Virus record (IMG/VR): IMGVR_UViG_3300005096_000100 | Coordinates: 1 to 48,083 of that record | Source: a virus | Length of the DNA stretch: 48,083 bases | Direction: 5' to 3' (one strand) | In this document: one piece after another, positions 2,099 through 47,800 of the stretch | Numbering within the stretch: position 1 is the first letter of the stretch | How the letters are laid out: the number at the start of each line of letters is the position of its first letter | Made by a program: the position numbers and the translations under genes | Notes under the pieces: generated by a model | Databases searched by the model: none | The model's input: only the letters and a program-made list of their open reading frames with translations | Told to the model about the DNA's origin: nothing

Positions 2099-2114
2099 GG
2101 TATCACGTGATACC
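2099..2114. repeat. Palindrome GGTATCACGTGATACC, perfect
   Basis: Intergenic, 17 nt upstream of the tail fibre ATG, immediately downstream of a sigma70-like -10. Confidence 0.95.
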
Positions 2115-3935: not shown

Positions 3936-4130
3936 ATGTCACAATACCCCGATGCACTGGTTACGGAACTACAGCAAGAATTGACTAATTCCATCGCTTC
4001 AAAGATATCGAAAGGCGCTCAACTACGTGAAGCTAAACAAGTCATCGAAGCGCAGGAAGCAGTCATAGCTGATCTGAAACAACAAGTGGAACGACTGTTG
4101 GCTCCACAGCTAGATGTTGGTATCACGTGA
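3936..4130 (+). CDS. Hypothetical coiled-coil protein (64 aa)
   Basis: ATG at 3936 is preceded by GGGAG, whereas the ORF-track start at 3900 is GTG without an RBS. The stop TGA lies inside the palindrome copy at 4119..4134 (protein ends ...GIT*). Confidence 0.45.
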   Translation: MSQYPDALVTELQQELTNSIASKISKGAQLREAKQVIEAQEAVIADLKQQVERLLAPQLDVGIT

Positions 4131-4134
4131 TACC
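4119..4134. repeat. Palindrome, perfect
   Basis: Straddles the stop of 3936..4130, 25 nt upstream of ATG 4159. Confidence 0.95.
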
Positions 4135-5795: not shown

Positions 5796-5808
5796 GGAAG
5801 TAAAAAAT

Positions 5809-7727: not shown

Positions 7728-8187
7728 TATCATGCGAATTGAAGTACAAAGAATAGTTGAAGACGGTGAAGCTACTCTTTCCACCATTAGCTTAGAAGGT
7801 TCTGTGTTTAGCTTCGGTCTGGAAGACCAGAGACAGGCTATCGCTAAAGTCATGGATGAAACCAGGGTGCCAGCGGGGAGCTACCGTACTTTGTTGCGAG
7901 ATGCGGGCGGCATGAATAAACGTTACCACGCGAAGTTCCCTCAAATACACAAGGGTATGCTCCATCTGCAAGGTGTGCTGGGGTTCACTTACATATACTT
8001 TCACATCGGGAACACAGACGACGATACGTCGGGCTGTATATTGGTGGGCAGAGGTGCCAGTATATTGCAGAAGGGGTTAACTGTACAGAGCAGCACACCG
8101 GCTTACTTAGAACTATATAGCGCGGTATCCGAAGCCGCATTCAGAGACGAATTAACCACGGAAATCTACGACATAGTGAGGAACTAA
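7720..8187 (+). CDS. YkuD/L,D-transpeptidase-fold-like protein (DUF5675-like); candidate cell-wall enzyme
   Basis: The motif FHIGNTDDDTSGCILVG resembles the His...SxGC catalytic signature. An alternative start is at 7732. It is the last-but-one gene of the late block. Confidence 0.4.
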   Translation: MGDIMRIEVQRIVEDGEATLSTISLEGSVFSFGLEDQRQAIAKVMDETRVPAGSYRTLLRDAGGMNKRYHAKFPQIHKGMLHLQGVLGFTYIYFHIGNTDDDTSGCILVGRGASILQKGLTVQSSTPAYLELYSAVSEAAFRDELTTEIYDIVRN

Positions 8188-9136: not shown

Positions 9137-9639
9137 AGTTCTTCCTTATTTCGTCCATAAAAAGCTAGTAAAGCAGCTTCACATCGTCCATCTAATAGGC
9201 CACCGTTCGGACCAAACCACAGCGTTTCATTGTCGGGAAATAGTTCTAGGCATTTAAGCAATGCTGTTTCTTTATTCGCTCCTATGCCAAAGAAGTTTTT
9301 CCAGATCGTAGGACGGATTAACCTATACTCATACTCCAGCGCCGATAGTACGCCCCGGATAACTCCGAAAGATTGACCAAACGAAAACATCGAAGACACC
9401 CCCTGTCCAGGCATAGCACTGACACTTTCTAAATATACTGTACCGTTTAAACTATCCATTAAACTGACTAAAACTAGTTCATCAATCTCCCGACGTTTTT
9501 TACTTTTCCGAGATTTCGTAGCTACGTCGCGTACTGGAATATCCCACACCCGTAGAGCGCCGTCAGGTTTAAGGTGCGCGATAGCACCAGATACGCCAGG
9601 GTCTATACCTACCGTAGTACACTTAAATGTGCTAGTCAT
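9133..9639 (-). CDS. RuvC-like Holliday junction resolvase
   Basis: N-terminal VGIDPGVSGAIA (catalytic Asp motif), ESVSAMPGQG, and C-terminal DGRCEAALLA. Typical of the phage RuvC fold. Confidence 0.75.
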   Translation of the reverse strand: MTSTFKCTTVGIDPGVSGAIAHLKPDGALRVWDIPVRDVATKSRKSKKRREIDELVLVSLMDSLNGTVYLESVSAMPGQGVSSMFSFGQSFGVIRGVLSALEYEYRLIRPTIWKNFFGIGANKETALLKCLELFPDNETLWFGPNGGLLDGRCEAALLAFYGRNKEEL

Positions 9640-9836
9640 TCTACGTCCTTTAAGATGAGTAAGTATTTTCCATCGGCTCGGTCAAACGTACCGTCGATCA
9701 CTAGATACCGACCACACGTGTCTCCTATGTCGTTATCTTCGTAGGTATCACGTGATACCTCTCGCACGTGGTAGTTAGATAGTGGGCTTGTGCGCCTAGC
9801 TAACATATCTCTCCATCTGGTGAATTTTAGTATCAT
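9636..9836 (-). CDS. Hypothetical protein (66 aa)
   Basis: Overlaps both neighbours by 4 nt. Contains palindrome copy 9744..9759, read as VSRDT. Confidence 0.5.
   Translation of the reverse strand: MILKFTRWRDMLARRTSPLSNYHVREVSRDTYEDNDIGDTCGRYLVIDGTFDRADGKYLLILKDVE
9744..9759. repeat. Palindrome, perfect (intragenic)
   Basis: Inside 9636..9836, read as VSRDT. Confidence 0.95.
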
Positions 9837-11977
9837 TTCTTATATACCTTTCCTTCCCAAGCATCAACTTTAATAGGGTAGTCTGCGGACCACCCGCCAC
9901 GTTTAGCGTACTCCGCCATTATCTCCGTAACTTCCTTAACGCTGCCAAACTTCGCACTTTGTTCGGTCACGATTTCATCGTATACAGAAAATATTATTTT
10001 ATAGCCATGCTCCCGAAGACCGAACATCGCGGGTATTAGTATCTCCCTAGACGTGGCCTGTGTTGCGTTCTCCGCCAGCTTTCCGCCGTAGGTCCAAACC
10101 CGTATCCATTGCCCGGATTTCTGCGACATGTAAGTTAGTTGTAAGCGTTCTTGGCAGTAGCAAGTCCCGTCCGCGCAGTCTTGCCATTCTGATGGCTTAT
10201 GCCATTGCGGCATGGTTAACCGTAGCTCTGGTTTGAAATACCAGATACGCTTACCGTTAGGTAGGCGCATCGACAACCAATCGTCAATCATCTTGAAACT
10301 TATTTCGTTTACATACGTCTCTCTACCGGTGTTGAGACACTCAATAGCTGCTCGTTCTAAGGCATACCAAAAGTCTACGATAGCTGGATGCTTAGCTCTC
10401 CATGCTTGACAAATCTCTATGATACGTTCGTCCGTATGTGTGTCAGAGTTGTCGAATTTACGCCATGCTCCTAACGCGCCTTGGTACCCGAAAGCTAATT
10501 CCCCAGTTTTGCCATCGAAGCGTTCTGCTGGATATTTGTGTTTAAATAAATCTTTGTCACGTTTGGCTAACGCCACAGCGTCGGGAGGTAAGTTATGGAT
10601 AGAACAACCCATCAACTCATATATGGGGTCGCCGCGATGGAAAGCTTCTACTTTCCATTCTTCTTCCGCTAGGCACGCTAGAAGTACGGCTTCGATCGAT
10701 ACGAAATCTCCAGCGATTATCCTGTTACCTTTGTCGGCGACTATATGGTGTCGAGAGGCTTTACCGACGGCCTCCATCGCATCACCGTACATAATGTCAA
10801 GCCATACAGGGTCACGGTGCCGTAAATCTTTTATCAGTTGATCGGGCGGAACACCTTCGAAACCTTTAGATAGGTTTAGTATCTGAAAACCTTGCGCCGT
10901 CCATCGCCCTGTACTCGCCCCATGATATTTCGATTGGAACCTAGCACGCCCATCCCTACCTCGGTGCCGGATCATTGCGGCTAGTTTCTTAGTCGAAGCT
11001 TTATTATACTTCACCCGTATCTGTAATGCCCGAAGTGTTTCTCCCTCTGGCATAAAATTCTTTTCACCTTCCAGTACTTCCTCTATGTACTCCGCTTGGA
11101 GATTGTCCATAGGCACATCGCGATCTTCTAACCACTCCATAATTCTAGCGTGCTGCGTAGGAGCAAAGCCAGTTATCTCTTTGAATTCGTCGTAGAGTTC
11201 TGACGCTCTGACATCAACTATAGCCATCGCATCGTCAATACTGTTTTCGTTCAATAACAGCCCACGAATATTTATCTCTTGGTCAAGCCGAAACACTAGT
11301 AACTCTGTTTCAGGAAGATCGCCGAGATAGCTACTGATGCCTTGCTGCTGTCTTATGTCGTCCGCACAGTACTCTACAAACTTCATAAAATCTTCGCAGT
11401 AATATCCCCCATCCTCTCTAGCATCTGGGTTATTTTCCCGCTCGGTAGCCGTCATGTCCCCCCACTCTACCCATTCATGGTCTGGGATATGGTCCTTAGC
11501 GGTCTTAAGATGTAGCTTAGAGTACTTAGTGATGAGCCTACCACCTTCAGGGTTCTTCCCTGGTAGCCCAATCACTTTAGCCAACCTGTCCAGTCCTGGA
11601 GGCATTGAATAGTATGAAGCGGTGGCCATGGTGTCACGCCATTGGTGCGGGAGAACTTCGATCCAACCGTGCTTAGGTATGCAGATGTTAGTCCAGATAG
11701 CGTACTCGAAATGCGACCCGTGAACTTCAAGGCTGTCTCCATCCATTAACGCCACGTAAAGATCGCGCGGCATATCACGATCAATACTGCCACCGTTCAC
11801 CCAAGCTTGGATATCCGCCAGTTCTTTACCCGGCCACCAGGATTGGATATCCGCATCACCTATGCCATAAGCGCAGCAAATAACTTCCGTTGTTGGGTCT
11901 TCCGAATAGCACCACGACCCCACCTTCTTAAGGTCAGCGTAGCTCTTAGTCTCGAAATCGAAAGCGATGATCGCCAT
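9833..11977 (-). CDS. Family A DNA polymerase with 3-5 exonuclease domain
   Basis: 714 aa. Exo I FDFET at the N-terminus. Pol motifs GDFVSIEAVLLA (A), KTGELAFGYQGALG (B-like) and SVYDEIVTE (C). Confidence 0.9.
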   Translation of the reverse strand: MAIIAFDFETKSYADLKKVGSWCYSEDPTTEVICCAYGIGDADIQSWWPGKELADIQAWVNGGSIDRDMPRDLYVALMDGDSLEVHGSHFEYAIWTNICIPKHGWIEVLPHQWRDTMATASYYSMPPGLDRLAKVIGLPGKNPEGGRLITKYSKLHLKTAKDHIPDHEWVEWGDMTATERENNPDAREDGGYYCEDFMKFVEYCADDIRQQQGISSYLGDLPETELLVFRLDQEINIRGLLLNENSIDDAMAIVDVRASELYDEFKEITGFAPTQHARIMEWLEDRDVPMDNLQAEYIEEVLEGEKNFMPEGETLRALQIRVKYNKASTKKLAAMIRHRGRDGRARFQSKYHGASTGRWTAQGFQILNLSKGFEGVPPDQLIKDLRHRDPVWLDIMYGDAMEAVGKASRHHIVADKGNRIIAGDFVSIEAVLLACLAEEEWKVEAFHRGDPIYELMGCSIHNLPPDAVALAKRDKDLFKHKYPAERFDGKTGELAFGYQGALGAWRKFDNSDTHTDERIIEICQAWRAKHPAIVDFWYALERAAIECLNTGRETYVNEISFKMIDDWLSMRLPNGKRIWYFKPELRLTMPQWHKPSEWQDCADGTCYCQERLQLTYMSQKSGQWIRVWTYGGKLAENATQATSREILIPAMFGLREHGYKIIFSVYDEIVTEQSAKFGSVKEVTEIMAEYAKRGGWSADYPIKVDAWEGKVYKK

Positions 11978-12017: not shown

Positions 12018-12575
<558 letters not shown>

Positions 12576-12598: not shown

Positions 12599-12614
12599 GA
12601 TATCACGTGATACC
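12599..12614. repeat. Palindrome, 1 mismatch (GATATCACGTGATACC)
   Basis: Intergenic, 24 nt upstream of start 12575. Confidence 0.9.
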
Positions 12615-13909: not shown

Positions 13910-15127
13910 TTAGCCTTTCTTAATAGGTTTGAAGAGCGACTTAGCGTCCCTCTTAATGCGACGGCGAGGGTCGCCCTCGACCGCCACGGTGGTACTGCCT
14001 TTGGGTTTGAAGGCCCATCTAGCAGTGAATGCTTTACCTTCCGGTAGCGCATCCAATTGGGCAGGCGATAGAAACGTCGGTTTAGACATCATACGCTTGC
14101 CGAATTTCTTCTTAGCGGCAGTCTCCGCACCTTTCTTGTATTTGCGGTTGCTGCGAGAAGCTACCAGTTTTAACCCCGGTACTTCTTTACCGTTGGTTAG
14201 GAGTTGAAATGCTTTTGTGTTTGCCGCTTTGAAAGCAATCTTCGATAGAGACTGCAATTCAATAATGCGACCAAGCTGTGCGTTCGTTAGAGCGTCCGCA
14301 CCTTTCGTTCCTGAAGCCATCATCAATAATCCTTGTAGTTCTTCCATGGTTTCCATGATCGCGGGGCACTGGTGGCCACGTGCAGGACAGAACCGACAAT
14401 GTTCGCCGGCAACGGTATCACGTGATACCTCTGTGCGTTCCATAGCCGGTACACATTCATCGAACAGCCAAGCGTCTAAGTCATCTGGCGATATCTCCCA
14501 AGTCCTATGAGGCCCATCATGGTGCCAGCCTCGGGGCTGTATGATATGTAGAACAACCTTAGTCACAGTGTCCCAAATCATCAGGTCCTCGATGATGCCA
14601 GCAGCATAGTAAAGACATTGCGGGTTCTTCTCGACTTCAACTACGATGCCTGCGCCATGCTTGTAATCGTAGACATGTAGTACGTTTTCTTCCGAGAAGT
14701 ATGAAAAGTCCGACATGCTATAGAAATCAGGATGTATGCCAGGACAGTGGAACCTGCGTTCGACCCAAGAATTACCTTGGTTCCGGTCAGGGTGCCATTC
14801 ATTGACGATATGCAGGAAATACTGCACCGCGTCAGCCATCTCTTTAGTGACTGTAACAAGTAAACCACTGTTGTATTCTAATGGTACGTCGCCATCTTCG
14901 TAAATTTTGCCATCCGATGTTATGATGTGTCCGATTAACTCCCAAGGTTCATGACCGTGGGAGAGGCACAGTTCTGCAAGGACATGCGCAGCTTGGCCCT
15001 CACGAGTATAGTCTTCGCCGTCGTTAGTCAGCCCGTCACTCTGGTAGACGGAACCGGAACACACCATCCATCGATGTGCCCCGCTTCCGCCCAGAGGTGA
15101 GTGAGCTTTCAATTCACTCACTGCCAT
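13910..15127 (-). CDS. DUF2800-type PD-(D/E)XK (Cas4/RecB-like) nuclease
   Basis: 405 aa. N-terminal GGSGAHRWMVCSGS, central D..Y.YKHG, and a C-terminal Cys cluster CRFCPARGHQCP. Confidence 0.7.
   Translation of the reverse strand: MAVSELKAHSPLGGSGAHRWMVCSGSVYQSDGLTNDGEDYTREGQAAHVLAELCLSHGHEPWELIGHIITSDGKIYEDGDVPLEYNSGLLVTVTKEMADAVQYFLHIVNEWHPDRNQGNSWVERRFHCPGIHPDFYSMSDFSYFSEENVLHVYDYKHGAGIVVEVEKNPQCLYYAAGIIEDLMIWDTVTKVVLHIIQPRGWHHDGPHRTWEISPDDLDAWLFDECVPAMERTEVSRDTVAGEHCRFCPARGHQCPAIMETMEELQGLLMMASGTKGADALTNAQLGRIIELQSLSKIAFKAANTKAFQLLTNGKEVPGLKLVASRSNRKYKKGAETAAKKKFGKRMMSKPTFLSPAQLDALPEGKAFTARWAFKPKGSTTVAVEGDPRRRIKRDAKSLFKPIKKG
14414..14429. repeat. Palindrome, perfect (intragenic)
   Basis: Inside the DUF2800 nuclease gene, read as VSRDT. 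Confidence 0.95.
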
Positions 15128-15130: not shown

Positions 15131-15667
15131 TTAGTCCCCATCTTCGAGTTCAAGGTTCACTTCATCGATGAACTTCTGACGCTCCTTCGCCGGGATATCG
15201 TCAAGCTTACCCGTCTTAGAATAGTCAGCGATGATCTGCCCAGTGAATTTAGCGCCCAAGACTTCAGCAGCGTCAGAAGCGACCTTTGCTACGTCTTCCT
15301 TGGTCGGACCATCGTCGTCACTGTCGTCCTTCTTCGAACGACGACGGCGCTTCGGCCTCTCTTCGGCCTCTTCCTCTTCCGGCTCTTCGTCCTTCTTCGA
15401 ACGACGACGGCGCTTCGGCCTCTCTTCGGCCTCTTCCTCTTCCGGCTCTTCGACCTTCTTCGAACGACGGCGTTGGCGTTTGGGCTTCTCCGGTTCCGCC
15501 TCTTCCTCTTCAGATGTCTCGCTACCGTTTGCTTCCTCCAGCAAATTAAGCAAGCGAGGGACATCATCGGGTTCGAGTTCCTCACCACGAGGCATTACAG
15601 CTTCGATAGAGACGTAACGTTCTCCACCGTCGCCAATCTCAACACTGATTTTCTTAATCTCTGGCAT
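15131..15667 (-). CDS. Highly charged repeat protein (178 aa)
   Basis: Contains 2.7 in-frame copies of a 21-aa unit (SKKDEEPEEEEAEERPKRRRR) encoded by the 63-bp tandem repeat. Confidence 0.6.
   Translation of the reverse strand: MPEIKKISVEIGDGGERYVSIEAVMPRGEELEPDDVPRLLNLLEEANGSETSEEEEAEPEKPKRQRRRSKKVEEPEEEEAEERPKRRRRSKKDEEPEEEEAEERPKRRRRSKKDDSDDDGPTKEDVAKVASDAAEVLGAKFTGQIIADYSKTGKLDDIPAKERQKFIDEVNLELEDGD
15326..15511. repeat. 63-bp tandem repeat, ~2.7 copies
   Basis: Units start at 15326, 15389 and 15452. The first two are near-identical. The repeat is in frame in 15131..15667. Confidence 0.9.
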
Positions 15668-15712: not shown

Positions 15713-15952
15713 CTATTTCATGTGGACGTGTTTAGTCGCCCACATCAAAGCCTGTTCAGCGTTCGTTCTTGCGAGCGCTAACTCCCTACTTGTGCCTATG
15801 TTGGAACAAGTATCTATAAATTCCTTAATAATTTTGGACAACTCATGGGCTTGATTTATCGAAGACCTTGCCCTCGCATCAGCTTGCGCCGCTAAACCAT
15901 CTTCGATAATCTTACCAGCGACATCAACTTCTCTATCTCTAGTCTCATCCAT
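15713..15952 (-). CDS. Hypothetical protein (79 aa)
   Basis: ATG at 15952 has a GGGAGAAG RBS, whereas the track start at 15967 is TTG. A palindrome copy lies 21 nt upstream. Confidence 0.5.
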   Translation of the reverse strand: MDETRDREVDVAGKIIEDGLAAQADARARSSINQAHELSKIIKEFIDTCSNIGTSRELALARTNAEQALMWATKHVHMK

Positions 15953-15972: not shown

Positions 15973-15988
15973 GGTATCACGTGATACC
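15973..15988. repeat. Palindrome, perfect
   Basis: Intergenic, 21 nt upstream of start 15952. Confidence 0.95.
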
Positions 15989-19060: not shown

Positions 19061-19076
19061 GGTATCACGTGATACT
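19061..19076. repeat. Palindrome, 1 mismatch (GGTATCACGTGATACT)
   Basis: Straddles the stop of 19065..19544, 45 nt upstream of start 19016. Confidence 0.9.
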
Positions 19077-19544
19077 AACTACGCCACAATCACATCCCCC
19101 GGTATCATAAAATGAACACCCGGCGAAATGGACAGGAGACGTTGTTGCTTTACTAGCTACTTCACCTAGAGCATTTTCATGCGCGCCGCAGTCGCATACA
19201 TCCGTATTCTGGAACGAGCACCCAGCAGCATGAATGACCGCCGCCTTATTATCGATGTCGCCAACAGTGGTTGAGCTTGGGAATATGTCGCTCTCGTCCT
19301 CTAAATCTGAAGGCATATATTGGCCACAGATTAAATGGCAATTCGGAAACCCGGACTGCTTCAGCAGCTTAGGGGCGTTAGGCTGTGCGCCCACTAGCTT
19401 AGGAGCGTTACGCTGTGGCGCAATGGGGATCAGCGCTAGTGTAGGTGGCCAGTAGCGGCACTCCGTTAGGTCAGGGTTGCCAGGGCTAGGTGCGGGCGCG
19501 GAGTGGGCGCACTGGTGGCATGTGATGTCTTTGTCTATTTCCAT
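19065..19544 (-). CDS. Cys-rich protein with a duplicated AGCSFxxTxxCDCG motif (159 aa)
   Basis: ATG at 19544 has an AAGGA RBS, whereas the track start at 19562 is TTG. The stop TGA lies inside the palindrome copy at 19061 (protein ends ...SIT*). Confidence 0.5.
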   Translation of the reverse strand: MEIDKDITCHQCAHSAPAPSPGNPDLTECRYWPPTLALIPIAPQRNAPKLVGAQPNAPKLLKQSGFPNCHLICGQYMPSDLEDESDIFPSSTTVGDIDNKAAVIHAAGCSFQNTDVCDCGAHENALGEVASKATTSPVHFAGCSFYDTGGCDCGVVSIT

Positions 19545-19558
19545 GATGTTGGTTCCTT

Positions 19559-19819
19559 TCAAGGTTGGATGTAGCGGCGATGGTCAGGGCCGAGGACAAC
19601 GAAGTATCGTGGCGGTGACAGTCCTTCGTTTAAGGTGTTCCGCGCACGCTTGGCGGATATCTTATCTTCAAAGTACACCCCCTGACTCGCTACCGGACCC
19701 ACGACAATATCATCCACCACATCATCGTGGATGGCGAATAGCCGTAGAACTGCATTGCTCCGTGTTTGGGTCTTTGTCAGCTTCACGGCTTGAGCTTTGA
19801 GTTTACGCTTACTTGGCAT
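19559..19819 (-). CDS. Hypothetical basic protein (86 aa)
   Basis: ATG with a GAGGA RBS. Confidence 0.5.
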   Translation of the reverse strand: MPSKRKLKAQAVKLTKTQTRSNAVLRLFAIHDDVVDDIVVGPVASQGVYFEDKISAKRARNTLNEGLSPPRYFVVLGPDHRRYIQP

Positions 19820-20125: not shown

Positions 20126-20443
20126 CTACGCTCCCCCGTCCCTTGAACCCAATCGTACATTATCAATGCTTAACGCCGTGCAGAACGACACAAAAGCATC
20201 TAGCTCGTTGCCACTCTTCACAGTGACGACGAAAACTTCAGGTTGGTTGGATCGATTCTTAACGCGACGCCGCAATCCTTCGACCGCGATCAAAGTCCAC
20301 TTCGGGGCGTCATTGTTCTTCACCCACTTGCTGATAGCATTTGAGGATACGTGCAGCAGTTCAGCTAACGCTACCGTGGTAAGACCGAGGTCCTTCCTGA
20401 CGGCGACTAAGTGTGCGGTATCAGTTCTAAATGTCTTATACAT
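20126..20443 (-). CDS. Helix-turn-helix DNA-binding protein (105 aa)
   Basis: The segment LGLTTVALAELLHVSSNAISKWV is a classic HTH. ATG at 20443 has an AAGGAAG RBS. A perfect palindrome lies 22 nt upstream. Confidence 0.65.
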   Translation of the reverse strand: MYKTFRTDTAHLVAVRKDLGLTTVALAELLHVSSNAISKWVKNNDAPKWTLIAVEGLRRRVKNRSNQPEVFVVTVKSGNELDAFVSFCTALSIDNVRLGSRDGGA

Positions 20444-20464: not shown

Positions 20465-20480
20465 GGTATCACGTGATACC
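20465..20480. repeat. Palindrome, perfect
   Basis: 22 nt upstream of the HTH gene start at 20443. Confidence 0.95.
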
Positions 20481-20554: not shown

Positions 20555-21541
20555 CTACTTCTTGCTCTTCTTCTTTTTCTTCTTCGGCGCAGGACGTTGA
20601 AGCGCTTTCGGTATGGGAGGCATGTCGCCCGGCTCAAGGTTTTCGTCAGGAACATAGCCAGCGTCTTCCTTGACATCGGCACCGTCGGACACGTCCAGGC
20701 CAAGCTCTGCCGCCGCCCAACGAACGAACGTCATCTGCGCTTTAACAGACATGTTGTTAAAAGCATCAACCGTGGTATCGTACACGCTCTTACCCTTACG
20801 GCTCTTAACCGCTTTGGCTTCGGCATCCGTTACGACAGTCAATCCGTTGTTGCCGGCAATGCTCTTAATACTAAGCGCACGTTCTTCCGGCTTCATCGAC
20901 TTCAAAGCATTCTGCACTTGGTCAAAAGAACTTACCTTCGGCGCAGACGGCGCGGCACTGGGACCGGCACCCCGTCCATCGTCCGTACCCTTGGCGGCAC
21001 GGGACTTTTTATTCGCCGCTTTGTTACGGTTACGCAGGTCTTCAAGCATAAGCGCACCAGCGCCCTTGTCTTCGTTTTCCGCAACTCCGATGGCCACCAG
21101 CTTACGGGCAGTTTGCCATCCTTGGTCGATATTAGTTTCAACCCAATCCTGGAATTTGATACCAACATCAGTACACTGTTCTTTAGCGACCGCTAAGCGA
21201 CATGCAGCCGACAAGCGATGGTCGTCAGCTTGACCAGAGAGCTTCGATGCTTTCTTAAACCGGACATTGATTTCGGTCGCCGTCGCTTCAAGCTTGCGCT
21301 CGGTACGCTGCTTGGCGGCAACTTCCTTCAGTTCCTTGTTCGTCTTGTCCCGTTCGGCGTCAGCTTGGCGCTTAAACCGCTTGGCTTCCCGCTCGGCATC
21401 CCGTGCGCTGGCGTTGGCGGCTTTAGCCTTGTCCCTCGCTTGGGCAATCTTGGTGGCCGCGACCTGTTCCGCTTCGGACAGTTCGCGAGCCTTCTTCGGC
21501 TTGGCTTTGCTTTTGGTTTCCGCTTTCTTTTTCGTAGCCAT
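20555..21541 (-). CDS. Lys/Ala-rich, probably DNA-binding protein (328 aa)
   Basis: Start MATKKK at 21541 has an AAGGAAGAC RBS; the longer track ORF overlaps the upstream gene. Both termini are basic (the C-terminus ends KKKKKKSKK), and the central part is coiled-coil-like. Confidence 0.55.
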   Translation of the reverse strand: MATKKKAETKSKAKPKKARELSEAEQVAATKIAQARDKAKAANASARDAEREAKRFKRQADAERDKTNKELKEVAAKQRTERKLEATATEINVRFKKASKLSGQADDHRLSAACRLAVAKEQCTDVGIKFQDWVETNIDQGWQTARKLVAIGVAENEDKGAGALMLEDLRNRNKAANKKSRAAKGTDDGRGAGPSAAPSAPKVSSFDQVQNALKSMKPEERALSIKSIAGNNGLTVVTDAEAKAVKSRKGKSVYDTTVDAFNNMSVKAQMTFVRWAAAELGLDVSDGADVKEDAGYVPDENLEPGDMPPIPKALQRPAPKKKKKKSKK

Positions 21542-21581
21542 GATGTCTTCCTTTTTAAAGTTTGGTGTGTGGTGCGACGTT

Positions 21582-21597
21582 GGTATCACGTGATACC
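21582..21597. repeat. Palindrome, perfect (extends to a 20-bp palindrome, 21580..21599)
   Basis: Intergenic, 40 nt upstream of start 21541. A TTGACA hexamer (minus strand, 21604..21609) lies 6 nt away. Confidence 0.95.
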
Positions 21598-21605
21598 AAA
21601 GAATG

Positions 21606-22097
21606 TCAAACGTTATTTTTGATATCTCCGCAAATAGGAGGCACGGGGTCGTCAAAGCTCCAGCGCAAGTCGCATTTGACGCAGTACATTTCATCGGATT
21701 GCCGAATGGCTTGACAATCAGCACCTAGAATACCTTTAACCGGAACACACAAATCCCCGTCGTTCACATACGCCATAAGGCCGTCTCTAGCGTAGAGTTC
21801 CCCATCCGGCGTTATGGCAAGGCGAACGTCTTCGAATTCATCCCCAAGCGGATCGACAGGCTCTTGGCAAATGCGCTTAGGTAATTCCTCAATAGCGACT
21901 TCAACCGCTTCGTTAAGGAACCCCGGCAGAGATTGCACACCACGAGTAAACTCGATAGCAGGCCGCCACACTAGACCGCAGAACTGGCAAGCATGAGTAT
22001 GGTGGCCTCGATCCACCCATTCGCCGTCATCGATGTGGCGTTCACAGCACTGCGGACAGGATAAAATGAGGTCGATGGCTTTAGCTCGTCCAGGCAT
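21606..22097 (-). CDS. Cys/His-rich (zinc-ribbon-like) protein (163 aa)
   Basis: CPQCCERH...HTHACQFCG and C-terminal CVKCD...PPICG. Confidence 0.5.
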   Translation of the reverse strand: MPGRAKAIDLILSCPQCCERHIDDGEWVDRGHHTHACQFCGLVWRPAIEFTRGVQSLPGFLNEAVEVAIEELPKRICQEPVDPLGDEFEDVRLAITPDGELYARDGLMAYVNDGDLCVPVKGILGADCQAIRQSDEMYCVKCDLRWSFDDPVPPICGDIKNNV

Positions 22098-22774
22098 TAT
22101 TCTACCCTCCAGCCGCGTCGCTTAGCTTCAGCCTCGATCAAGTCAATCTTAAGATTAATTTCGGCGGGGTCGGCGCTACCTTCATAACTCACGCCCCAAT
22201 AAGCTTGCGCCTCGGCTATCGTAAAATCGTGACAGCCGCCGCGAATAGCAGTGACGCCTTTATTTAACCAGCCGATATGGCGGTAGCCTCGGGTGCTTTG
22301 GCCAGCGTCTATCAGATCAACGCCACGTAGATCAGCGTGATTTAGACTAGCGCCACGTAGATCAGCGCCACATAGATCAACGCCACGTAGATCAGCGTGA
22401 TTTAGACTAGCGCCACGTAGATCAGCGCCACATAGACTAGCGCCACGTAGATCAGCGCCACATAGATTAGCGACACTCAAATCAGCGTGATTTAGACTAG
22501 CGTGACTTAGATCAGCGTGACTTAGATTAGCGTCACTTAGATCAGCGTCACTCAAATCAGCGTCACTCAAATCAGCGTGACTTAGATCAGTGTTATTTAG
22601 ATCAGCGTCACTCAAATCAGCGCCACTCAAATTAGCACCAATCTCTAGCGCCCGCCCTACCGCTAGCCCTATCTTTACCCTTAAAGAAGTGTTTTCAGCG
22701 CACTCAATCTCGGCAGTAACCTGTGCTGCGCCAGTCCAGCGGTTAAAAATAACGCAGTTAATTAATGACATCAC
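22097..22774 (-). CDS. Pentapeptide-repeat protein (225 aa)
   Basis: About 22 consecutive A(D/N)LxX pentapeptides (ADLSDADLSDANLSHADL...ADLRGASL...). Confidence 0.85.
   Translation of the reverse strand: MMSLINCVIFNRWTGAAQVTAEIECAENTSLRVKIGLAVGRALEIGANLSGADLSDADLNNTDLSHADLSDADLSDADLSDANLSHADLSHASLNHADLSVANLCGADLRGASLCGADLRGASLNHADLRGVDLCGADLRGASLNHADLRGVDLIDAGQSTRGYRHIGWLNKGVTAIRGGCHDFTIAEAQAYWGVSYEGSADPAEINLKIDLIEAEAKRRGWRVE
22321..22440. repeat. 60-bp tandem duplication inside the pentapeptide-repeat gene
   Basis: 22321..22380 and 22381..22440 differ at only 3 positions. Confidence 0.9.
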
Positions 22775-23203: not shown

Positions 23204-23219
23204 GGTATCACGACACACC
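23204..23219. repeat. Degenerate palindrome copy (GGTATCACGACACACC, 3 mismatches; flanks TTT/AAA)
   Basis: Lies between the divergent early promoters. Confidence 0.5.
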
Positions 23220-23245: not shown

Positions 23246-23274
23246 TTGACAGGCGATTACTTCCAGCCTATAGT
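23246..23274 (+). promoter_or_regulatory. Rightward promoter TTGACA-17-TATAGT for the prim-pol/helicase gene
   Basis: Consensus -35, 17-nt spacer and good -10, 36 nt upstream of ATG 23310. Confidence 0.6.
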
Positions 23275-23309
23275 AAACGCCCCCAAAAATACTATTGAAC
23301 AGGACACCA

Positions 23310-25277
23310 ATGCCTAATATGAAGGATGAAGCACTCGCCTACGCGGCGAGGGGCTGGCCTATATTCCCCGCAAGGGCAAACAAGAAACCATATACCGACA
23401 GTGGTGTGTTAGACGCGACAACAAATAAAAAGCAAATAGCCGATTGGTGGACGCTGTGGCCACAGGCTAATATCGCCTTGGATGTTGGCGCGGCTGGTAT
23501 GGTAGTTTTAGACTTTGACCCTGGCTCCGAATGGGGCGAGGTAATTAAGAATGTCGGAAACTTACCTGACACTCATCTAATACAGAATACGCCTAGAGGT
23601 GGCGAACATCATTTCTATCGTAAAGATAGAGATGAAATAATACCACTATCCGCTGGCAAGATCGCAGACCACGTGGACATAAGATCGCACAACTCATACG
23701 TCCTTCTAGCACCTTCAAAAACAAAAGATGGCGTCTACACCTGGGAAGAAGAAGGGAAGCCAGCTTACCGCACTGATAGGTTGGTTGAGGTGGCCGGTAA
23801 AAAACGGGATGTAAGCGAAGACCGCGATGAGTGGATTATCGAACCTGACCTGCCTGAAAGTATAGCGGACTTAACCAAGTGGTTAAAAAAGAAAGCACAG
23901 ATCGCTGTCGATGGACGCAATGGCGATGAAATGGCTTATCGTACAGCGGCCATGTGCAAGTCTTACGGCGTATCACCTGAAACTGCTTTCGACCTTATGT
24001 GGGAGCACTGGAACCCCCGTTGCGATCCTCCCTGGTCTGACGAACAGATAGAACATTTAGAGCAGAAAATAGTCAATGGCTATACCTACAATACGAGCCC
24101 GCCCGGAAACCTGACTAAGGGCTACAAAGCCGCAAAGCGCAAGAAACTATTCAAACGGGTGAAGCAAGAAGCCGAAAGCGCTAAAGGCGACACGGCGCAA
24201 ATCACCGTTGGCCGGTTTCGTATTATCGACCGCGAAGGCATCAAAAATATAAAACCCCCGGAATGGTTGATTGAGGATGTCCTGCCCGAAGGCTCGTATT
24301 CAATGCTTATTGGCCCACGCTCCACTTACAAAACCTTTGTTGCCTTAGACATGGCCATGTCCATAGCTTGCGGCGGAGATAGGTACTACAGCGACGTGAA
24401 GGACTGGCGGGGCCTGTGGGGCTCGGTTAAGGACAAAGGCGCTGTACTGTACGCTGCGGGCGAAGGAAGGGGCGGTTTTAAGCACCGCATCGAAGCTTGG
24501 GAAAGCTACCACTTAGAAGGTGATGAAGTATCTAACTTCTTTTTAGCCGATCCCGTACCGCACCCGACCGAAGAAGACATTGAGGACTTCATAAATTACG
24601 CACTTTTGAAAGCCGACAAATATAAGCTTGTTGTTCTCGACACCGTGGCCCGGTCGATGCAGGGGTTAAATGAAAATAGCCAACAAGATGCGTCTGCTTT
24701 CACCTTACTAATCCAGACTATCCAGCAGGAACTTGGTTGTGCAGTCTTAACCGTTCACCATACAGGCCACGGGTCGGATGATAGAGCGCGTGGTAGTTCT
24801 GTATTCGGTGCGGACGTTGACACCGAATTTGTAATGGAGAAGCGCGATCCTCATTATGTACAGATATCGAATACCAAACAAAAAGACGCTTCCGAATGGG
24901 ACAAACCTAAACTAGTCCATGTCTTTGAACATAAACAAAGCTTAGTCGCATCGACACCACCGCGCAACACCAAAGCAACCGTACAGTCTATCGAAGATAA
25001 ACAACAATCGAAAGGTAAAAAGAAGCGCCGTAATAAGGTGGATAGCGAAGGGATTGACGAAATGATCCGCGATGTTGCTTATAGAGCTATAAAAAAGGTA
25101 CCAGTCAAGGATTGGTCACGCAGCCTATTATCGGCTGCAATTGCTAAGAATAAGATAATCAATTTAGCCGCATCCACCATAAGAACTAAACATATGGACT
25201 GTCTATTAATGGATAAAGACCACTTAATATGGGACTGTTATGATGAAAATAAAGGTGTTTGGCGTTATAATTCTTGA
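23310..25277 (+). CDS. Bifunctional primase-polymerase (prim-pol) fused to a RecA/DnaB-like (AAA_25-type) helicase domain
   Basis: The N-terminus AYAARGWPIFP...VLDFDP is typical of the prim-pol N-domain. The central part has GPRSTYKT (P-loop-like), LVVLDTVARS and VLTVHHTGHG..RARGSSVF. The track start at 23295 is TTG. Confidence 0.8.
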   Translation: MPNMKDEALAYAARGWPIFPARANKKPYTDSGVLDATTNKKQIADWWTLWPQANIALDVGAAGMVVLDFDPGSEWGEVIKNVGNLPDTHLIQNTPRGGEHHFYRKDRDEIIPLSAGKIADHVDIRSHNSYVLLAPSKTKDGVYTWEEEGKPAYRTDRLVEVAGKKRDVSEDRDEWIIEPDLPESIADLTKWLKKKAQIAVDGRNGDEMAYRTAAMCKSYGVSPETAFDLMWEHWNPRCDPPWSDEQIEHLEQKIVNGYTYNTSPPGNLTKGYKAAKRKKLFKRVKQEAESAKGDTAQITVGRFRIIDREGIKNIKPPEWLIEDVLPEGSYSMLIGPRSTYKTFVALDMAMSIACGGDRYYSDVKDWRGLWGSVKDKGAVLYAAGEGRGGFKHRIEAWESYHLEGDEVSNFFLADPVPHPTEEDIEDFINYALLKADKYKLVVLDTVARSMQGLNENSQQDASAFTLLIQTIQQELGCAVLTVHHTGHGSDDRARGSSVFGADVDTEFVMEKRDPHYVQISNTKQKDASEWDKPKLVHVFEHKQSLVASTPPRNTKATVQSIEDKQQSKGKKKRRNKVDSEGIDEMIRDVAYRAIKKVPVKDWSRSLLSAAIAKNKIINLAASTIRTKHMDCLLMDKDHLIWDCYDENKGVWRYNS

Positions 25278-25595: not shown

Positions 25596-25611
25596 GGTAT
25601 CACGTCATACC
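25596..25611. repeat. Palindrome, 1 mismatch (GGTATCACGTCATACC)
   Basis: At the edge of the AT-rich origin-like region. Confidence 0.85.
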
Positions 25612-28418: not shown

Positions 28419-28434
28419 GGTATCACGTGATACC
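28419..28434. repeat. Palindrome, perfect
   Basis: In the divergent control region 28284..28897. Confidence 0.95.
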
Positions 28435-31657: not shown

Positions 31658-31673
31658 GGTATCACGTGATACC
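31658..31673. repeat. Palindrome, perfect
   Basis: Intergenic, 17 nt upstream of the portal ATG. Confidence 0.95.
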
Positions 31674-33798: not shown

Positions 33799-34167
33799 AT
33801 GGTATCACGTGATACCTCTGACGCGAAACTCGTTAAGACCCAGGAAGAGATGCACGAAGTTCGGACCACTCTACATAGAGAGATGATGGCTAAAGTGCTC
33901 GGCACTTATGAGGGGCGACATATTCTGTATAACGTTCTGGCATTGGGGGATATATATGAGCAAAGAGACAGTATGTCTTATGGTTTGGCGGAAAGCCAAC
34001 GGGCTATAGGGCGTAGGGAAATGTCGCTGGATTTGCTTAAAGACATATTGACAGCCGATCCGAACGCTTATATTGTCATGCAACAAGAGGTTGGGGCCTT
34101 CGAGGAAAAGTTTGAAGTTGTAGAAGACGCACCGGAAGAGGATGAAGATGATGACGATCATGAATGA
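33799..34167 (+). CDS. Hypothetical acidic protein (122 aa)
   Basis: ATG with a GGGGAG RBS 8 nt upstream. Codons 2-6 (VSRDT) are the palindrome copy at 33801. Confidence 0.5.
   Translation: MVSRDTSDAKLVKTQEEMHEVRTTLHREMMAKVLGTYEGRHILYNVLALGDIYEQRDSMSYGLAESQRAIGRREMSLDLLKDILTADPNAYIVMQQEVGAFEEKFEVVEDAPEEDEDDDDHE
33801..33816. repeat. Palindrome, perfect
   Basis: Begins with the G of ATG 33799. Read as codons 2-6 (VSRDT). Confidence 0.95.
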
Positions 34168-34876
34168 TGACACCGAGAATACTGACACTGGCAACAGTGG
34201 CAGTGACGACGATAGCGGAGAAGAAGCCGTTGTCAAAAACGAAGACCAGGAAGCCGATGACAAGTCTGACGATAAGCCCGATGACAAGTCTGACGACGCG
34301 AAGAAAGATGAGGACAAGGGCGACGATGATAAGCCCGATGACAAGTCTGACGACGCGAAGAAAGATGAGGACAAGGGCGATGATGAAGATAAGCCGGAAG
34401 GTGCTCCTGAAAGCTATACCGACTTTACGATCCCTGAAGGATTTGATGTCGATGAAACACGTTTGGAACGCTTCCAGAAATACGGGAAAGATAACAATCT
34501 GACCCAGGACGCGGCCCAAGAGTTAATTGACTTGCATGCTGAAGTGGTGACTGAAGTTGCTACTAGCAATCAAGATCGCTGGGATGTTATTAGGGACGGC
34601 TGGAAAAAGGATAGTCTCGCTGACAAAGAACTGCACGACGAGAAAGGCGACGCCAAAGCTGGTATTGCTCTTGCTAAGACTGCGGCCATTGCTCTGGGCG
34701 GCGAAGAATTGATCGCTGCTTTTGATCTTACTGGTGTCGGCGACCATCCTGCCGTTACGAAAGCGTTTCATAAATTGGGTAAGGCTATGGAAGAAGATAA
34801 GTTCGTATTCGGAAACGCTAGTTCGAAAGAGCTTTCTGCTGCCCAAGTCCTTTACCCTTCAATGAAGGATAAATAG
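34160..34876 (+). CDS. Scaffolding protein (start ambiguous, 34142-34160)
   Basis: Very acidic N-terminus with a 19-aa tandem repeat. The C-terminal part is alpha-helical. It lies immediately upstream of the major capsid gene. Confidence 0.6.
   Translation: MNDDTENTDTGNSGSDDDSGEEAVVKNEDQEADDKSDDKPDDKSDDAKKDEDKGDDDKPDDKSDDAKKDEDKGDDEDKPEGAPESYTDFTIPEGFDVDETRLERFQKYGKDNNLTQDAAQELIDLHAEVVTEVATSNQDRWDVIRDGWKKDSLADKELHDEKGDAKAGIALAKTAAIALGGEELIAAFDLTGVGDHPAVTKAFHKLGKAMEEDKFVFGNASSKELSAAQVLYPSMKDK
34253..34384. repeat. 57-bp tandem repeat (2 copies plus a partial) in the scaffold gene
   Basis: Units at 34271 and 34328, encoding DKPDDKSDDAKKDEDKGDD. Confidence 0.9.
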
Positions 34877-36412: not shown

Positions 36413-36436
36413 GTAGCGCTAGTGAAGCTATGTCGC

Positions 36437-36473
36437 CCTGGTATGACGTGATACCAGGGCGGCGTTTTCTTTT
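36437..36473 (+). terminator. Rho-independent terminator after the capsid/decoration genes
   Basis: Stem CCCTGGTATGAC/GTGATACCAGGG (contains the palindrome variant), followed by CGGCGTTTTCTTTT. Confidence 0.6.
36440..36455. repeat. Palindrome, 1 mismatch (GGTATGACGTGATACC), embedded in a terminator stem
   Basis: Flanks CCCT/AGGG extend the stem. A T-run follows. Confidence 0.9.
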
Positions 36474-41280: not shown

Positions 41281-41743
41281 GTATGAAATTGGGCCAGCAA
41301 ATCTAGACGATGTAAAGTATGTGTCTGCGAACTTGCGCCAGGGAGATAAGGATGAATTACAGGCTATGGTGCTAGGCGATGTAAGTCCTAGTTGCGCTGT
41401 GCTGTCGAGCTATATGGTATCACGTCATACCACTTATATCGGATACGCAAACGGCACTCCTGTAATCGTGTTTGGCGTCAAACCTCCTACCTTAATGGGT
41501 GAGGTGGCCACACCTTGGCTAGTAGGAACCGATGAAGTGCAGAAATATTCGAAAGCTTTCCTTCGGCACAGTTTAGGCGTGGTAGAACTTTGGAAGAAAC
41601 AATATCCGTTCATGCGGAACTATGTAGACGTGCGGAATACTTTCTCTATAAGGTGGTTGCAGTGGTTGAAATTTTCGGTATACTACCCAGAGCCTTATGG
41701 ACCTAGAAATTTACCATTCCATATGTTTGAAATGAGGACGTAA
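41270..41743 (+). CDS. Internal virion protein A-like (DUF2833/gp13-position)
   Basis: ATG at 41270 overlaps the nozzle gene stop. The pattern ANLRQGDKDEL...PWLVGT...IRWLQWLKF fits. Confidence 0.5.
   Translation: MKNKYEIGPANLDDVKYVSANLRQGDKDELQAMVLGDVSPSCAVLSSYMVSRHTTYIGYANGTPVIVFGVKPPTLMGEVATPWLVGTDEVQKYSKAFLRHSLGVVELWKKQYPFMRNYVDVRNTFSIRWLQWLKFSVYYPEPYGPRNLPFHMFEMRT
41416..41431. repeat. Palindrome, 1 mismatch (GGTATCACGTCATACC; same variant as 25596), intragenic
   Basis: Inside the gp13-like gene, read as VSRHT. Confidence 0.85.
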
Positions 41744-44840: not shown

Positions 44841-47800
44841 ATGGCTGAAAATGTCTTTGGAGTGCCTTCTTCAGATACCAGTTTGCGCGATGATTTCGTT
44901 AGTGGTCCGGACCCATTAGAATTACAGCGGTTTAAGAAAGCTGCTTCTGACTTGTTTGGAGATACACCAGACGTTATAAATAACGCACCCGAAGATACAG
45001 AATTACAGCGGTTTAAGAAAGCTGCTTCTGACTTGTTTGGGGATGCGCCGGACACTAAAAAAGCGGAAGCATCGGTCGAGGTATCACGTGATACCGACCC
45101 AGACACGTTCGCTAAGCAGGTTGACACTGCTAATGAACTAAACATACCCGTAGAAGCGGTCGAAGCTGCGCCCGAAGAAGCGGAATTACAACGGTTTAAG
45201 AAAGCTGCTGCTGAACTATTTAGCGACAGTCCGGCCACTGCTAAGTTCATGGAGAACCCTGCTAACGCTAAGTTGGCTAACGACAGCCTTGAAGAGCTTG
45301 GCTTTATAGAAGCTACGGTAAACTCCGTTAAGCGAAGCATGCTGGGTATTGGGCAAGCGTATCAGCAAGTCTTGACGGAGGAAAACCTTGAACAGAGCTT
45401 AGATAGCAGGCGAACTTTTGGAGAAATCCTCGACACTTACGCCGCCCGCAACCCAGGAGCCGTAACTAACCCAATTGATTTAATGTTGTCTTTAGAGCGC
45501 TACGCCAGTTCTAGGATATTTGGAGATGCGGACGAAGGTTTCCGTGGACGCGCGGCAAAGGTTGGGGCGTTAGCCGAAGAGCGCATGAAACTCCCTATGT
45601 CGGACGGCGCTAAAGACTTCATGAAAGGTGTTGAAGATGCCGAAGGTATTTTAGCTAAACTAGCCGCAGTCGCACTGGACCCAGTAGGTATGAGCGCCTT
45701 CGCTGCTGAAGTAGGTATAGAATTCATACCGCAGCTTCTGTTAGCTTCCGCTGCTACCTTAGCTACACGCAGCCCTGCCGTAGGTTCCGCAGCTTTGGGC
45801 TCTCTGTCTTTTGGCACGGAACGTTTTCGTTCCCCGCAGGAATTCCTTCAAGCGGCTGGAGTAGATTTAACTGATCCAGAACAAGTTAATGCTTTGTTGG
45901 CGGACCCGAAGACATTTGAAGAAGCTAAGAAGTTCGGCTTTGACAGAGGCATTGTGATCGGCGCTGTTGATGCTCTGTCCGGTGGCCTAGCCGGTAAAGC
46001 ACTAGCTAATAATCCTCTAGCTAATCTAGTCCTTCAAACCGCTGTGCAAGGCGTTATGGGTGGCGCTGGTGAAGCGGGCGCGGGCTTAGTTACTAAAGGC
46101 GAGATTGATATAAATGAAGTGATCTTCGAAGCTATCGGAGAGTTTGCTACTACGCCTATCGAAGTGGCGGGCATAGGCGGTAGGCCGCTATTCAGAAAGT
46201 TGAAAGAAACGGTTGACCAGAACCGCGCGGAGCAAAGCAAAGTTGCGATGGATGCGCTATCTAAAGCTTTGATCGACTCTCCGCTAACCGAACGCTCGCC
46301 TGAAGCAGCGGCGGAACATGCGGCAGCTAGTTTCCAGGAAGCCGGTGTAGAAGAAATCTATATCCCTATCGAAGCGTTGAATGTAGCGCTTGAAACGAAC
46401 GAAACGCTATTGAACGATTTAGAAGTTCTGGATCAAGTGGCGGATGCTGAAGCGTTTGGCGGGGACATAACGATAACTTCTAAATTGTTTTCGCAATTCG
46501 TATTGCAGAACCCAGAAGTATATACTTTGCTGAAAGACCACATTCGCGCGGACCCTGACGCTGTGACTGTTTCTGAAAGCCAAGAAATTCTAGGAGATAT
46601 CGAGGGGGCCACGGTTGTAGAGGACTTCGCCGGTACTACGGAAGAAGAGGTGTCACGTGATACCCCGTTGGAAGGTACCGTAGAAGAGACAACTAACCCA
46701 GAAGATGTGGCTGTCGTGGAGTTGGCTGAATTCGAAGCGGGCCGTCAAGCGTTGTACTCTACGGCAGAGGAAGCGGGTCTGTCGGAAGCGCTGTTCACGA
46801 CCTATGTTGAAGCTATCCAGAACCGACGTTCGGAAGCCGTCAAGGGCGTAGAGAGGAAGCGTCTGAGACGCATACAGAAACGTAACACTGCGAAGTACCA
46901 GGAAGCTAGGGAAGGACTACGGCAGGGCGTTGAAGAGACCGTAGCCCAACAACCTCTATATCAAGTGCTTTTATCCATAGGCCGTGACAGGCTAAACTAC
47001 GACGCCGTACTGGAGATATTCCAGGGAAACGTAGAAGCCATGAAGCGCTTGCCTAAGCTCAACGGCAGGACGATATACTCCACCAAAACTGATCCAGGCA
47101 TCGATCCAGAGATATTTGCCGATATCCAGGGTTTCGAAGGCGGGGCTGATGTATTCTTATTCAGTTTGTTAGACAGTCCTACGTTCGAACAAGCGGTCGA
47201 GAATGAAATCAACAAACGGATGGAAGAGAAATTCCCGACCATCTTGAGTATTGGGCAACAGGTGGCCGAAGCTTTAGAAACTTTGAACACGCCTGATGCA
47301 CACGGGTTAGTGCTGACTTTTGAGTTAGCAGCTATTAGGAAAGCTAAAGGTGAGAAACGTCTTAAGCGTTCTCTGTTGCGTGTTCGCGCATTGGACATAC
47401 TGGCTAAGTATAGAGTTAGTCAGATCAATCCTCGTAAGCTGGAGACGATGCAGAAACGTGAAGCTGTTCTCGCTCGTAAGGCTCTTAAGGCTGGTGACTT
47501 AGATGCAGCGGGAGTGCATAAGCTCAACCAAATCACTGCTTATGAGATGACGCGGGAAAGCTACAAAATAAAACGTGAACTGGAGATAGGTAACAGGTTC
47601 ATGCGTCGGTTCATCGGGCGCAACAAGAAACATAAAACTCTACCCATCGACCATCTCGACATGATAAAGCAGGTGCTAGATGACTATGACTTTGGTGCCG
47701 GTTCTAAAGCTTCGAGAGATTTGCAAAGCTGGATCGATGCCAAGCAGCAGGACGAAGGCATCGTCATGGACGTTGCGTCAGAGGTCATAGAGAACGACGG

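Follow-up and report, generated by a model that had tools for sequence, protein, structure and literature searches.

A genome-wide array of 16-bp palindromes in a family of uncultured podophages, and a candidate phage-encoded protein that may bind it

We analysed a 48,083-nucleotide stretch of viral DNA (IMG/VR record IMGVR_UViG_3300005096_000100, positions 1 to 48,083; hereafter the window), which is the complete circular genome of an uncultured podophage. The genome carries 17 copies of a 16-bp palindrome, GGTATCACGTGATACC, far in excess of expectation, evenly spaced around the circle and placed mostly in the small fraction of DNA that lies between genes. One copy within a gene is held in place by selection on the nucleotide sequence itself, related phages carry symmetric variants and hybrids of the same unit, and the open reading frames (ORFs) of the window yielded no ParB-family protein in domain scans. 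We propose that the palindrome is the cognate site of a phage-encoded dimeric DNA-binding protein, most likely a 328-residue protein encoded at 20555–21541 (probability about 0.45). Protein binding, the identity of the binder and the effect of binding are all inferred here from sequence and structural models.

The first and last 91 bases of the window are identical (1–91 and 47993–48083), which marks it as a complete genome assembled as a circle, with 47,992 unique bases. A first-pass annotation of this DNA had singled out positions 21580–21599 as a 20-bp palindrome, and direct reading bears this out: the segment is ttGGTATCACGTGATACCaa (TTGGTATCACGTGATACCAA), perfect over its whole length. 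Its inner 16-mer has 18 matches in the window at up to three mismatches, comprising 11 exact copies, 6 copies with one mismatch and 1 with three mismatches, in which one half is degenerate (Table 1). The annotation had also spoken of many dispersed copies; the 17 exact or one-mismatch copies compare with an expectation of 0.15 and a maximum of 3 in 100 dinucleotide shuffles. All 14 occurrences of the core TCACGTGA in the genome fall within copies of the palindrome, whereas isolated half-sites are not enriched (2 found, ~1.5 expected). All 16 positions are self-complementary, the centre included. No other dispersed repeats were found in the window.

The array is a property of a phage family. 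The exact 16-mer was found in 60 stretches when IMG/VR was scanned for it, and several related contigs are again multi-copy: one of 48.8 kb has 20 exact and 7 near-exact copies and a complete one of 44.6 kb has 14 and 8, their proteins being 40–75% identical to those of the window. In a logo of 151 unique family sites all 16 positions are nearly fixed, T at −1 and A at +16 are weakly preferred, and the flanks are otherwise unconserved. The full unit is a 16–18-bp palindrome of the form tGG..CCa, built from the half-site GG[T/G/C][A/C]TCAC.

Placement of the copies is strongly patterned. About 13 of the 17 lie in or at intergenic DNA, which makes up 5.1% of the genome, and a typical copy sits just past a stop codon, 16–45 nt ahead of the next start codon and upstream of its Shine–Dalgarno (SD) sequence. 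Copies are found in both plus- and minus-strand gene blocks, and the weakly preferred flanking bases are themselves symmetric. The remaining 4–5 copies are intragenic and in frame, in the genes for a DUF2800 exonuclease, a gp13-like protein and, twice, an internal virion protein. All of these read G GTA TCA CGT GAT ACC. Of the two alternative frames, one would include TGA and one would require an ATA codon, and we therefore treat this bias as a coding constraint and not as a signal. Gaps between neighbouring copies range from 1,117 to 5,625 bp with a coefficient of variation (CV) of 0.43, more even than expected from uniform placement or from a null model in which most sites are restricted to gene boundaries (P ~1e-4 for each). 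Spacing in the complete relative, contig c22745, has a CV of 0.52 (P ~1e-3). The preference for gaps is presumably due to a fixed 16-mer being cheapest to keep there. The function itself appears to need coverage along the DNA, and long genes would receive copies in frame.

Selection on the DNA is clearest at the copy in the DUF2800 gene. Beyond the window, nine related loci have a copy at these very codons, with eight in-frame copies of the GGTATC form in all. Where aligned positions encode the same amino acid, the codons are identical in 95% of pairs inside the site and in 48% in its flanks; this copy is conserved across the clade through selection at the nucleotide level. The lineage with the GGTCTC form encodes VSRET at the site in place of VSRDT. 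In two relatives (L185 and L188) this was the only copy found in ~20 kb, and it was likewise the only one found in L166, an 8-kb stretch of a 450-kb contig from an alphaproteobacterial metagenome-assembled genome. The DUF2800 copy may be the ancestral one. In L166 the site-bearing gene (5780–7744, minus strand) adjoins a Type ISP restriction–modification enzyme, which suggests that this locus is a prophage remnant or a defence island.

The most conserved copy lies within a gene of the replication module, and in L185, L188 and L166 it is the sole copy found. This is the starting point for the main rival explanation, in which the sites are replication elements used in recognition, loading or priming, either by the C-terminal domain of a primase–polymerase (prim-pol)/helicase or by the 328-residue protein acting as an initiator. 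The exonuclease-gene copy would then be an ancestral origin-like site, multiplied in the lineage of the window into many evenly spaced bidirectional starts. Origins inside replication genes are classical, as for lambda ori in gene O, the 328-residue gene lies between those for the prim-pol and an SNF2 helicase, and the C-terminal region of the prim-pol is uncharacterised. Even spacing and symmetry would also suit bidirectional events. However, the sites have neither an AT-rich nor an iteron context, the sequence on either side of them is unconserved, GC skew tracks nothing but the orientation of the genes, and the C terminus of the prim-pol has no detected DNA-binding domain. Moreover, 17–27 origins in a genome of 45–48 kb would be without precedent to our knowledge. 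We regard a role in replication as unlikely.

Variation between lineages argues for a partner that recognizes duplex DNA and co-evolves with the phage. Relatives bearing other forms of the motif, retrieved through the conserved 328-residue protein, carry symmetric variants: GGTCTCACGTGAGACC (GGTCTC..GAGACC), which occurs at least 25 times in one contig of 35 kb, and GGGATCACGTGATCCC (GGGATC..GATCCC). One phage carries both GGTATC and GGGATC forms. In L184 nearly all copies, including that at the conserved DUF2800 position, are asymmetric hybrids of different half-sites, and in L233 the 12-bp core is kept while the outer bases are loose or unpaired. A literature string search for the three palindromes returned nothing relevant.

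These sites bear on the possibility that the element acts in RNA, as an intercistronic hairpin with a 6-bp stem and an ACGU loop that would control mRNA processing, stability or translation. Most copies follow a stop codon and precede the next SD sequence, the palindrome yields the same RNA whichever way it is transcribed, and the two main variants are compensatory double changes. The symmetric forms are predicted to fold with −6.2 to −8.4 kcal/mol, and the copy at 36440 forms the tip of a genuine terminator, the only copy in the window with an extended stem and a T-run. In contrast, the hybrids of L184 (a hybrid RNA is predicted at −2.1 kcal/mol) and the loose outer bases of L233 break the stem while keeping the sequence, and the mismatch in each one-mismatch copy is uncompensated on the other arm. 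The loop is itself self-complementary, no Rfam family matches, and conserved in-frame copies within genes are hard to accommodate as intercistronic signals. The stem is also too short for RNase III. An RNA hairpin would allow paired changes only, so hybrid sites and half-sites that vary independently favour a dimeric protein on duplex DNA. An RNA element is decidedly improbable.

Chromosomal parS sites are highly conserved across bacteria, and natural ones deviate from consensus by ~0–2 bases. The first-pass annotation had noted 12 of 16 identities between the phage palindrome and parS (TGTTTCACGTGAAACA), and hand alignment gives the same result, with matches at positions 2, 3, 5–12, 14 and 15 and differences at 1/16 and 4/13. 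A random palindrome would agree with a single comparator at 6 or more of 8 positions per half-site with P ~0.004, which makes the resemblance suggestive but post hoc. The palindrome also keeps G2 and A7, the bases that separate parS from the Noc-binding site (NBS; PMC7383237 and both site sequences). These retained bases, an identity that takes in the whole TCACGTGA core and a dispersed layout suited to the loading of ParB clamps are what speaks for parS mimics that recruit or titrate the ParB of the host chromosome, as the annotation had proposed.

The proposal fares badly on closer comparison and we consider it very improbable. The exact copies each differ from parS (TGTTNCACGTGAAACA) at 4 positions and no site in the window comes within 3 mismatches of it. 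Among 448 family half-sites, 430 have G at position 1 and 2 have T; at position 4 the counts are 378 for A, 59 for C, 10 for G and 1 for T. The family thus avoids the bases that are optimal for parS and does not sample them. Related phages have fixed different symmetric variants although parS is conserved, and chromosomal ParB is too invariant a partner to account for a motif that differs between sister lineages. ParB–parS systems are widely distributed (PMC7383237, citing Livny et al. 2007). The two-base difference per half-site between NBS and parS is discriminated by ParB and Noc with 'exquisite specificity' (PMC7383237). The annotation had placed the departure from parS seen here on that same scale; the comparison is fair, but it argues against binding by host ParB, since two changes per half-site suffice for complete discrimination (PMC7383237). 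Exact bacterial copies of the 16-mer, among the matches listed, are single and do not lie beside shared neighbours of the parAB type.

The phage itself does not appear to supply such a system. Scans of the ORFs of the window (Pfam for 60, PHROGs for 30, NCBIfam for 10), which include the check for ParBc, HTH_ParB and KorB domains that the annotation had called for, found none of the three, nor any ParA/CbiA/AAA_31-type ATPase. Its by-eye impression that no ORF has a ParB N-domain therefore stands at the level of hidden Markov models (HMMs). It had also offered a phage protein as the partner of the sites; in this general form the idea is the reading we favour, whereas the ParB/KorB-like helix–turn–helix (HTH) that it envisaged was not found.

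Outside phages, at least 120 stretches of bacterial genomes (L061–L180) contain the exact 16-mer, each as a lone copy that is mostly intergenic. Among the matches listed, ~40% come from Rhodospirillales or unclassified Alphaproteobacteria (Thalassospira, Kiloniella, Magnetospirillum and others), an enrichment that is apparent only, and they lie in unrelated contexts with no shared neighbour gene such as parAB. Three of the stretches (L154, L160 and L166) encode homologues of genes of the phage family. This distribution, and the lack of a recognizable regulator among the phage proteins found, could mean that the sites belong to another palindrome-binding transcription factor of the host, possibly an alphaproteobacterium, which the phage exploits. 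However, the alphaproteobacterial enrichment is unproven and rests on the matches listed, non-alphaproteobacterial matches are intergenic equally often, and the host copies listed share no regulon theme. Some bacterial copies are ordinary terminator-hairpin tips or sit on phage-derived contigs. Lineage-specific variants and hybrids within one phage are also easier to reconcile with a partner that the phage encodes. A borrowed host factor is improbable.

The 328-residue protein is the best candidate for a phage-encoded partner. All multi-site relatives that are adequately covered encode a member of its family, and it is the only conserved early protein in motif-bearing genomes that is neither an enzyme nor structural. 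Palindromes flank its gene in the window and in four relatives (L182, L184, L191 and L231). The protein has Lys-rich N- and C-terminal tails, a predicted coiled coil at residues 23–100 and a C-terminal helical domain, with a conserved helical core at about residues 84–181 that contains an invariant DDxRL motif, W133 and R170. AlphaFold models of the full-length protein and of the domain alone are confident (pLDDT ~83), and the long helix, at pLDDT >90, would be suited to dimerization. In two metagenomic homologues (P0009 and P0010) the core is fused to an HNH nuclease, as might be expected of a module that targets DNA. An early impression that the protein resembles DUF3102 found no support in Pfam.

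Several observations weigh against this assignment. The protein belongs to no Pfam family and has no recognizable DNA-binding fold, and Foldseek searches of PDB and BFVD gave E values of 0.3 or worse, with no match to ParB or KorB. Its putative recognition helix has no visible covariation with the motif variant; for example, one phage with GGTATC sites has ESYENVRKL and one with GGGATC sites has ESYENARKL. More broadly, neither the core of this protein nor the C terminus of the prim-pol gave a clear covariation signal, with too few lineages for one. Co-occurrence of protein and motif is confounded by shared ancestry. L185 and L188 encode a homologue yet have a single site in ~20 kb, and an HNH-fused homologue (L230, 8397–9476) lies in a 10.7-kb element that has no palindrome. 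That homologue adjoins an integrase and a P4-like prim-pol/D5 primase.

Two other products of the window were considered as binders. The prim-pol/AAA_25 helicase, with its C-terminal region of ~100 residues, is the second candidate. A weak Xre/DicA/RstR-like HTH protein is encoded next to the 328-residue gene, but it has no homologue other than itself among 5.8 billion proteins; as an orphan it cannot bind a motif common to the whole phage family, and we ruled it out.

The gene map suggests two long polycistronic operons with few host-type promoters, and the best σ70-like promoter matches lie in divergent regions at ~23.2 kb and ~28.6 kb. Matches to σ70-like promoters are not enriched in the genome and have no consistent position relative to the palindromes. 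When 82 sites were oriented by their downstream gene, no −35 or −10 element appeared in a fixed register. The minus strand has TTGACA 6 nt upstream of the copy at 21580–21599. The palindrome is unlikely to be a promoter itself, a notion we rejected since no phage RNA polymerase or sigma factor was found among the 60 ORFs, the flanks have no asymmetry and σ70-like promoters are not enriched. The motif fits GTA-N8-TAC, and a pentapeptide-repeat ORF hinted at a cyanophage, so an NtcA/CRP-type site was also entertained. With sites 16–45 nt from start codons and an SD sequence in between, an activator centred at −41.5 cannot fit, and the lack of a −10 element in fixed register counts against this reading too; it was dropped.

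Our proposal is that a dimer of the phage-encoded protein would occupy copies kept every 1–5 kb around the whole genome, set where possible in short intercistronic gaps (stop codon, site, SD sequence, ATG) and in frame within long genes. The bound array could act on the two long operons by blocking or gating host RNA polymerase; the protein might also, or instead, organize the DNA or nucleate a protein coat from regularly spaced points. Such action would be analogous to that of the KorB operators of plasmid RK2 (PMC11790492) or the stoperators of cluster A phages (PMC9283540), achieved with neither a ParB-family protein nor a known repressor. Two points count against it: no integrase or lysogeny gene was found, which leaves an immunity role of the stoperator kind with no context in lifestyle, and promoters are neither enriched nor consistently placed, which makes a transcriptional role conjecture.

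The closest parallels are arrays on other mobile elements. The operators (OB) of the IncP-1 plasmid RK2 fall into classes, some promoter-proximal and some distal. Like them, the phage sites are palindromes dispersed around a replicon in the range of 45–60 kb, where OB sites serve global control, and the layout here (17 dispersed palindromic sites, 4–5 of them intragenic) matches that type. KorB loads at OB and then slides to silence distant promoters (PMC11790492). Unlike the phage protein we propose, KorB is a ParB-family CTPase, a class with no member among the 60 ORFs, and the OB core TTTAGCGGCTAAA is unrelated to the phage palindrome. The phage array also differs from OB in its strikingly even spacing, with copies at nearly every second junction between genes.

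In cluster A mycobacteriophages, stoperators are 13-bp sites bound by a monomer. In L5 and Bxb1, more than 20 such short repressor sites, mostly in short intergenic spaces, block transcription genome-wide (PMC9283540); the ~13 of 17 phage copies in short intergenic spaces across the genome are similar in placement. The stoperator consensus differs between related phages and thereby defines specificity groups (PMC6550527). Stoperators are asymmetric and their orientation follows transcription (PMC9283540), whereas the phage sites are perfect palindromes with no orientation, and neither a homologous repressor of the L5 type nor an integrase was found among the 60 ORFs.

The linear plasmid-prophage N15 encodes SopA and SopB and has four palindromic SopB sites scattered in its genome, some of which lie close to phage promoters. 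Here too, palindromes are dispersed over a phage genome, but the phage studied here has at least 17 sites and no partition genes were found in its ORFs. Relative to ParB (Spo0J) at parS and Noc at NBS, the likeness is a 16-bp palindrome with the same core, while positions 1/16 and 4/13 always differ, ParB and ParA were not found and the sites are dispersed on a phage genome instead of clustered near an origin. The array belongs to neither the KorB-operator nor the stoperator family, and would resemble both in function. It falls into a known class, that of genome-wide binding-site arrays on mobile elements, with a candidate binder that is possibly of a new type.

A broader version of our proposal, which we put forward as doubtful, is that the phages have a ParB-independent array of nucleation sites. 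A new family of dimeric, coiled-coil proteins with Lys-rich tails would bind 16-bp palindromes every ~2–3 kb and thereby organize, silence or replicate the genome. Site specificity (GGTATC, GGTCTC and GGGATC half-sites) would then diversify in the manner of immunity or incompatibility groups, and the likeness to the parS core would reflect convergence or a very remote ancestry of the recognition mode. Genome-wide arrays of a single site are known from few mobile elements (KorB in RK2, the cluster A stoperators and Sop in N15), and each revealed unusual long-range control. The podophage family described here keeps such an array with three signs of function, namely even spacing, selection on DNA within a gene and symmetric lineage variants, and no known type of binding protein was detected for it among the scanned ORFs. 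Finding the binder would give a function to a protein family that has neither annotation nor structural relatives, and would reveal whether phages can label and manage their DNA by a second route that does without ParB. The motif also offers a practical marker for this phage family in metagenomes.

Table 1. Copies of the palindrome in the window, and the genes discussed with them
Feature	Position	Strand	Context
Exact copy	2099..2114		In the gap after internal virion protein gene (ends 2062) and before tail-fibre gene; 17 nt upstream of ATG 2131, upstream of SD
Exact copy	4119..4134		24 nt upstream of ATG 4159; internal TGA is the stop of ORF 3900-4130 (+)
Exact copy	9744..9759		Just downstream of polA (9833-11977, -), in or at small ORF 9636-9836
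One-mismatch copy (GATATC...)	12599..12614		Intergenic; 23 nt upstream of ATG 12575 (-)
Exact copy	14414..14429		Within DUF2800 exonuclease gene; read xxG GTA TCA CGT GAT ACC (VSRDT)
Exact copy	15973..15988		Intergenic; 20 nt upstream of ATG of Acb2/Tad1-like ORF (-)
One-mismatch copy	19061..19076		Internal TGA is the stop of ORF 19065-19562 (-); 44 nt upstream of start 19016
Exact copy	20465..20480		Between 328-residue gene and orphan HTH ORF; 21 nt upstream of ATG 20443 (-)
20-bp palindrome of the first-pass annotation	21580..21599		Exact 16-mer at 21582-21597; 40 nt upstream of ATG 21541 of 328-residue gene
Degenerate copy, one intact half-site (GGTATCACGACACACC)	23204..23219		Divergent region upstream of best σ70-like promoter (23246-23274) of prim-pol gene
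One-mismatch copy (..GTCATACC)	25596..25611		AT-rich intergenic region
Exact copy	28419..28434		Divergent region between minus-strand block (ends 28283) and packaging/structural operon
Exact copy	31658..31673		16 nt upstream of portal gene ATG 31690
Exact copy	33801..33816		Starts one base after the A of the start codon of ORF 33799-34167 (ATG GTA TCA CGT GAT ACC)
One-mismatch copy (36440-36455) in terminator	36430..36465	+	Tip of intrinsic terminator with 13-15-bp stem, then T-run; downstream of Bbp16-like gene
One-mismatch copy	41416..41431		Within gp13-like gene 41270-41743, same frame as other in-gene copies (MVSRHT)
Exact copy	45080..45095		Within 5.2-kb internal virion protein gene, frame VSRDT
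One-mismatch copy (GGTGTC...)	46649..46664		Within internal virion protein gene, same frame as copy at 45080..45095
328-residue protein, best candidate binder	20555..21541	-	Between prim-pol and SNF2 genes, replication module
Prim-pol/AAA_25 helicase, second candidate binder	23295..25277	+	Uncharacterised C-terminal region of ~100 residues
Weak Xre/DicA/RstR-like HTH ORF	20126..20443	-	Orphan
Internal virion protein, 'large polyvalent' (LPD22 domain), 1,737 residues	44841..48083, continuing to 2062		5.2-kb gene crossing the circular junction

The gene content is that of a podophage with no close relative among isolated phages. Structural genes encode a T7-type portal, a large terminase, a Terminase_2 small subunit, a Bbp16-like protein and gp13- and gp14-like proteins; the capsid shares 56% identity with its counterpart in Bordetella phage BPP-1, and the portal 36% with those of BPP-1-like phages. 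The replication module comprises the prim-pol/AAA_25 helicase, the SNF2 helicase, the DUF2800 exonuclease, an Enc34-type single-stranded-DNA-binding protein, a family A polymerase and a RuvC-like resolvase. Megablast of the genome found no match among isolated phages, the DUF2800 exonuclease is <30% identical to that of any isolate, and the 328-residue protein has no match in GenBank phages.

Some further features of the genome were seen in passing. A small ORF on the minus strand (15713–15952) with a palindrome copy directly upstream has an Acb2/Tad1 hairpin domain (Pfam E = 9e-11), and its product is likely a sponge for cyclic-nucleotide defence signals; the relative L231 encodes a Tad2-like protein beside its DUF2800 gene. 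The pentapeptide-repeat protein (22097–22774, minus strand; Pfam E = 2e-36) has an 18-copy tandem periodicity of 15 nt and homologues in two related contigs. In a tail protein of 1,014 residues (38236–41280, plus strand), the FCCH domain of ubiquitin-E1 is matched three times (Pfam E = 3e-26), which probably reflects a repeated β-rich fold. Tandem repeats within genes occur as eight GTTTTC units at 12054–12101, three 63-nt units at 15324–15512 within ORF 15131–15667, two 57-nt acidic units at 34254–34381 in a scaffold-like gene and three 63-nt units (ELQRFKKAA..) at 44918–45244, at the start of the internal virion protein.

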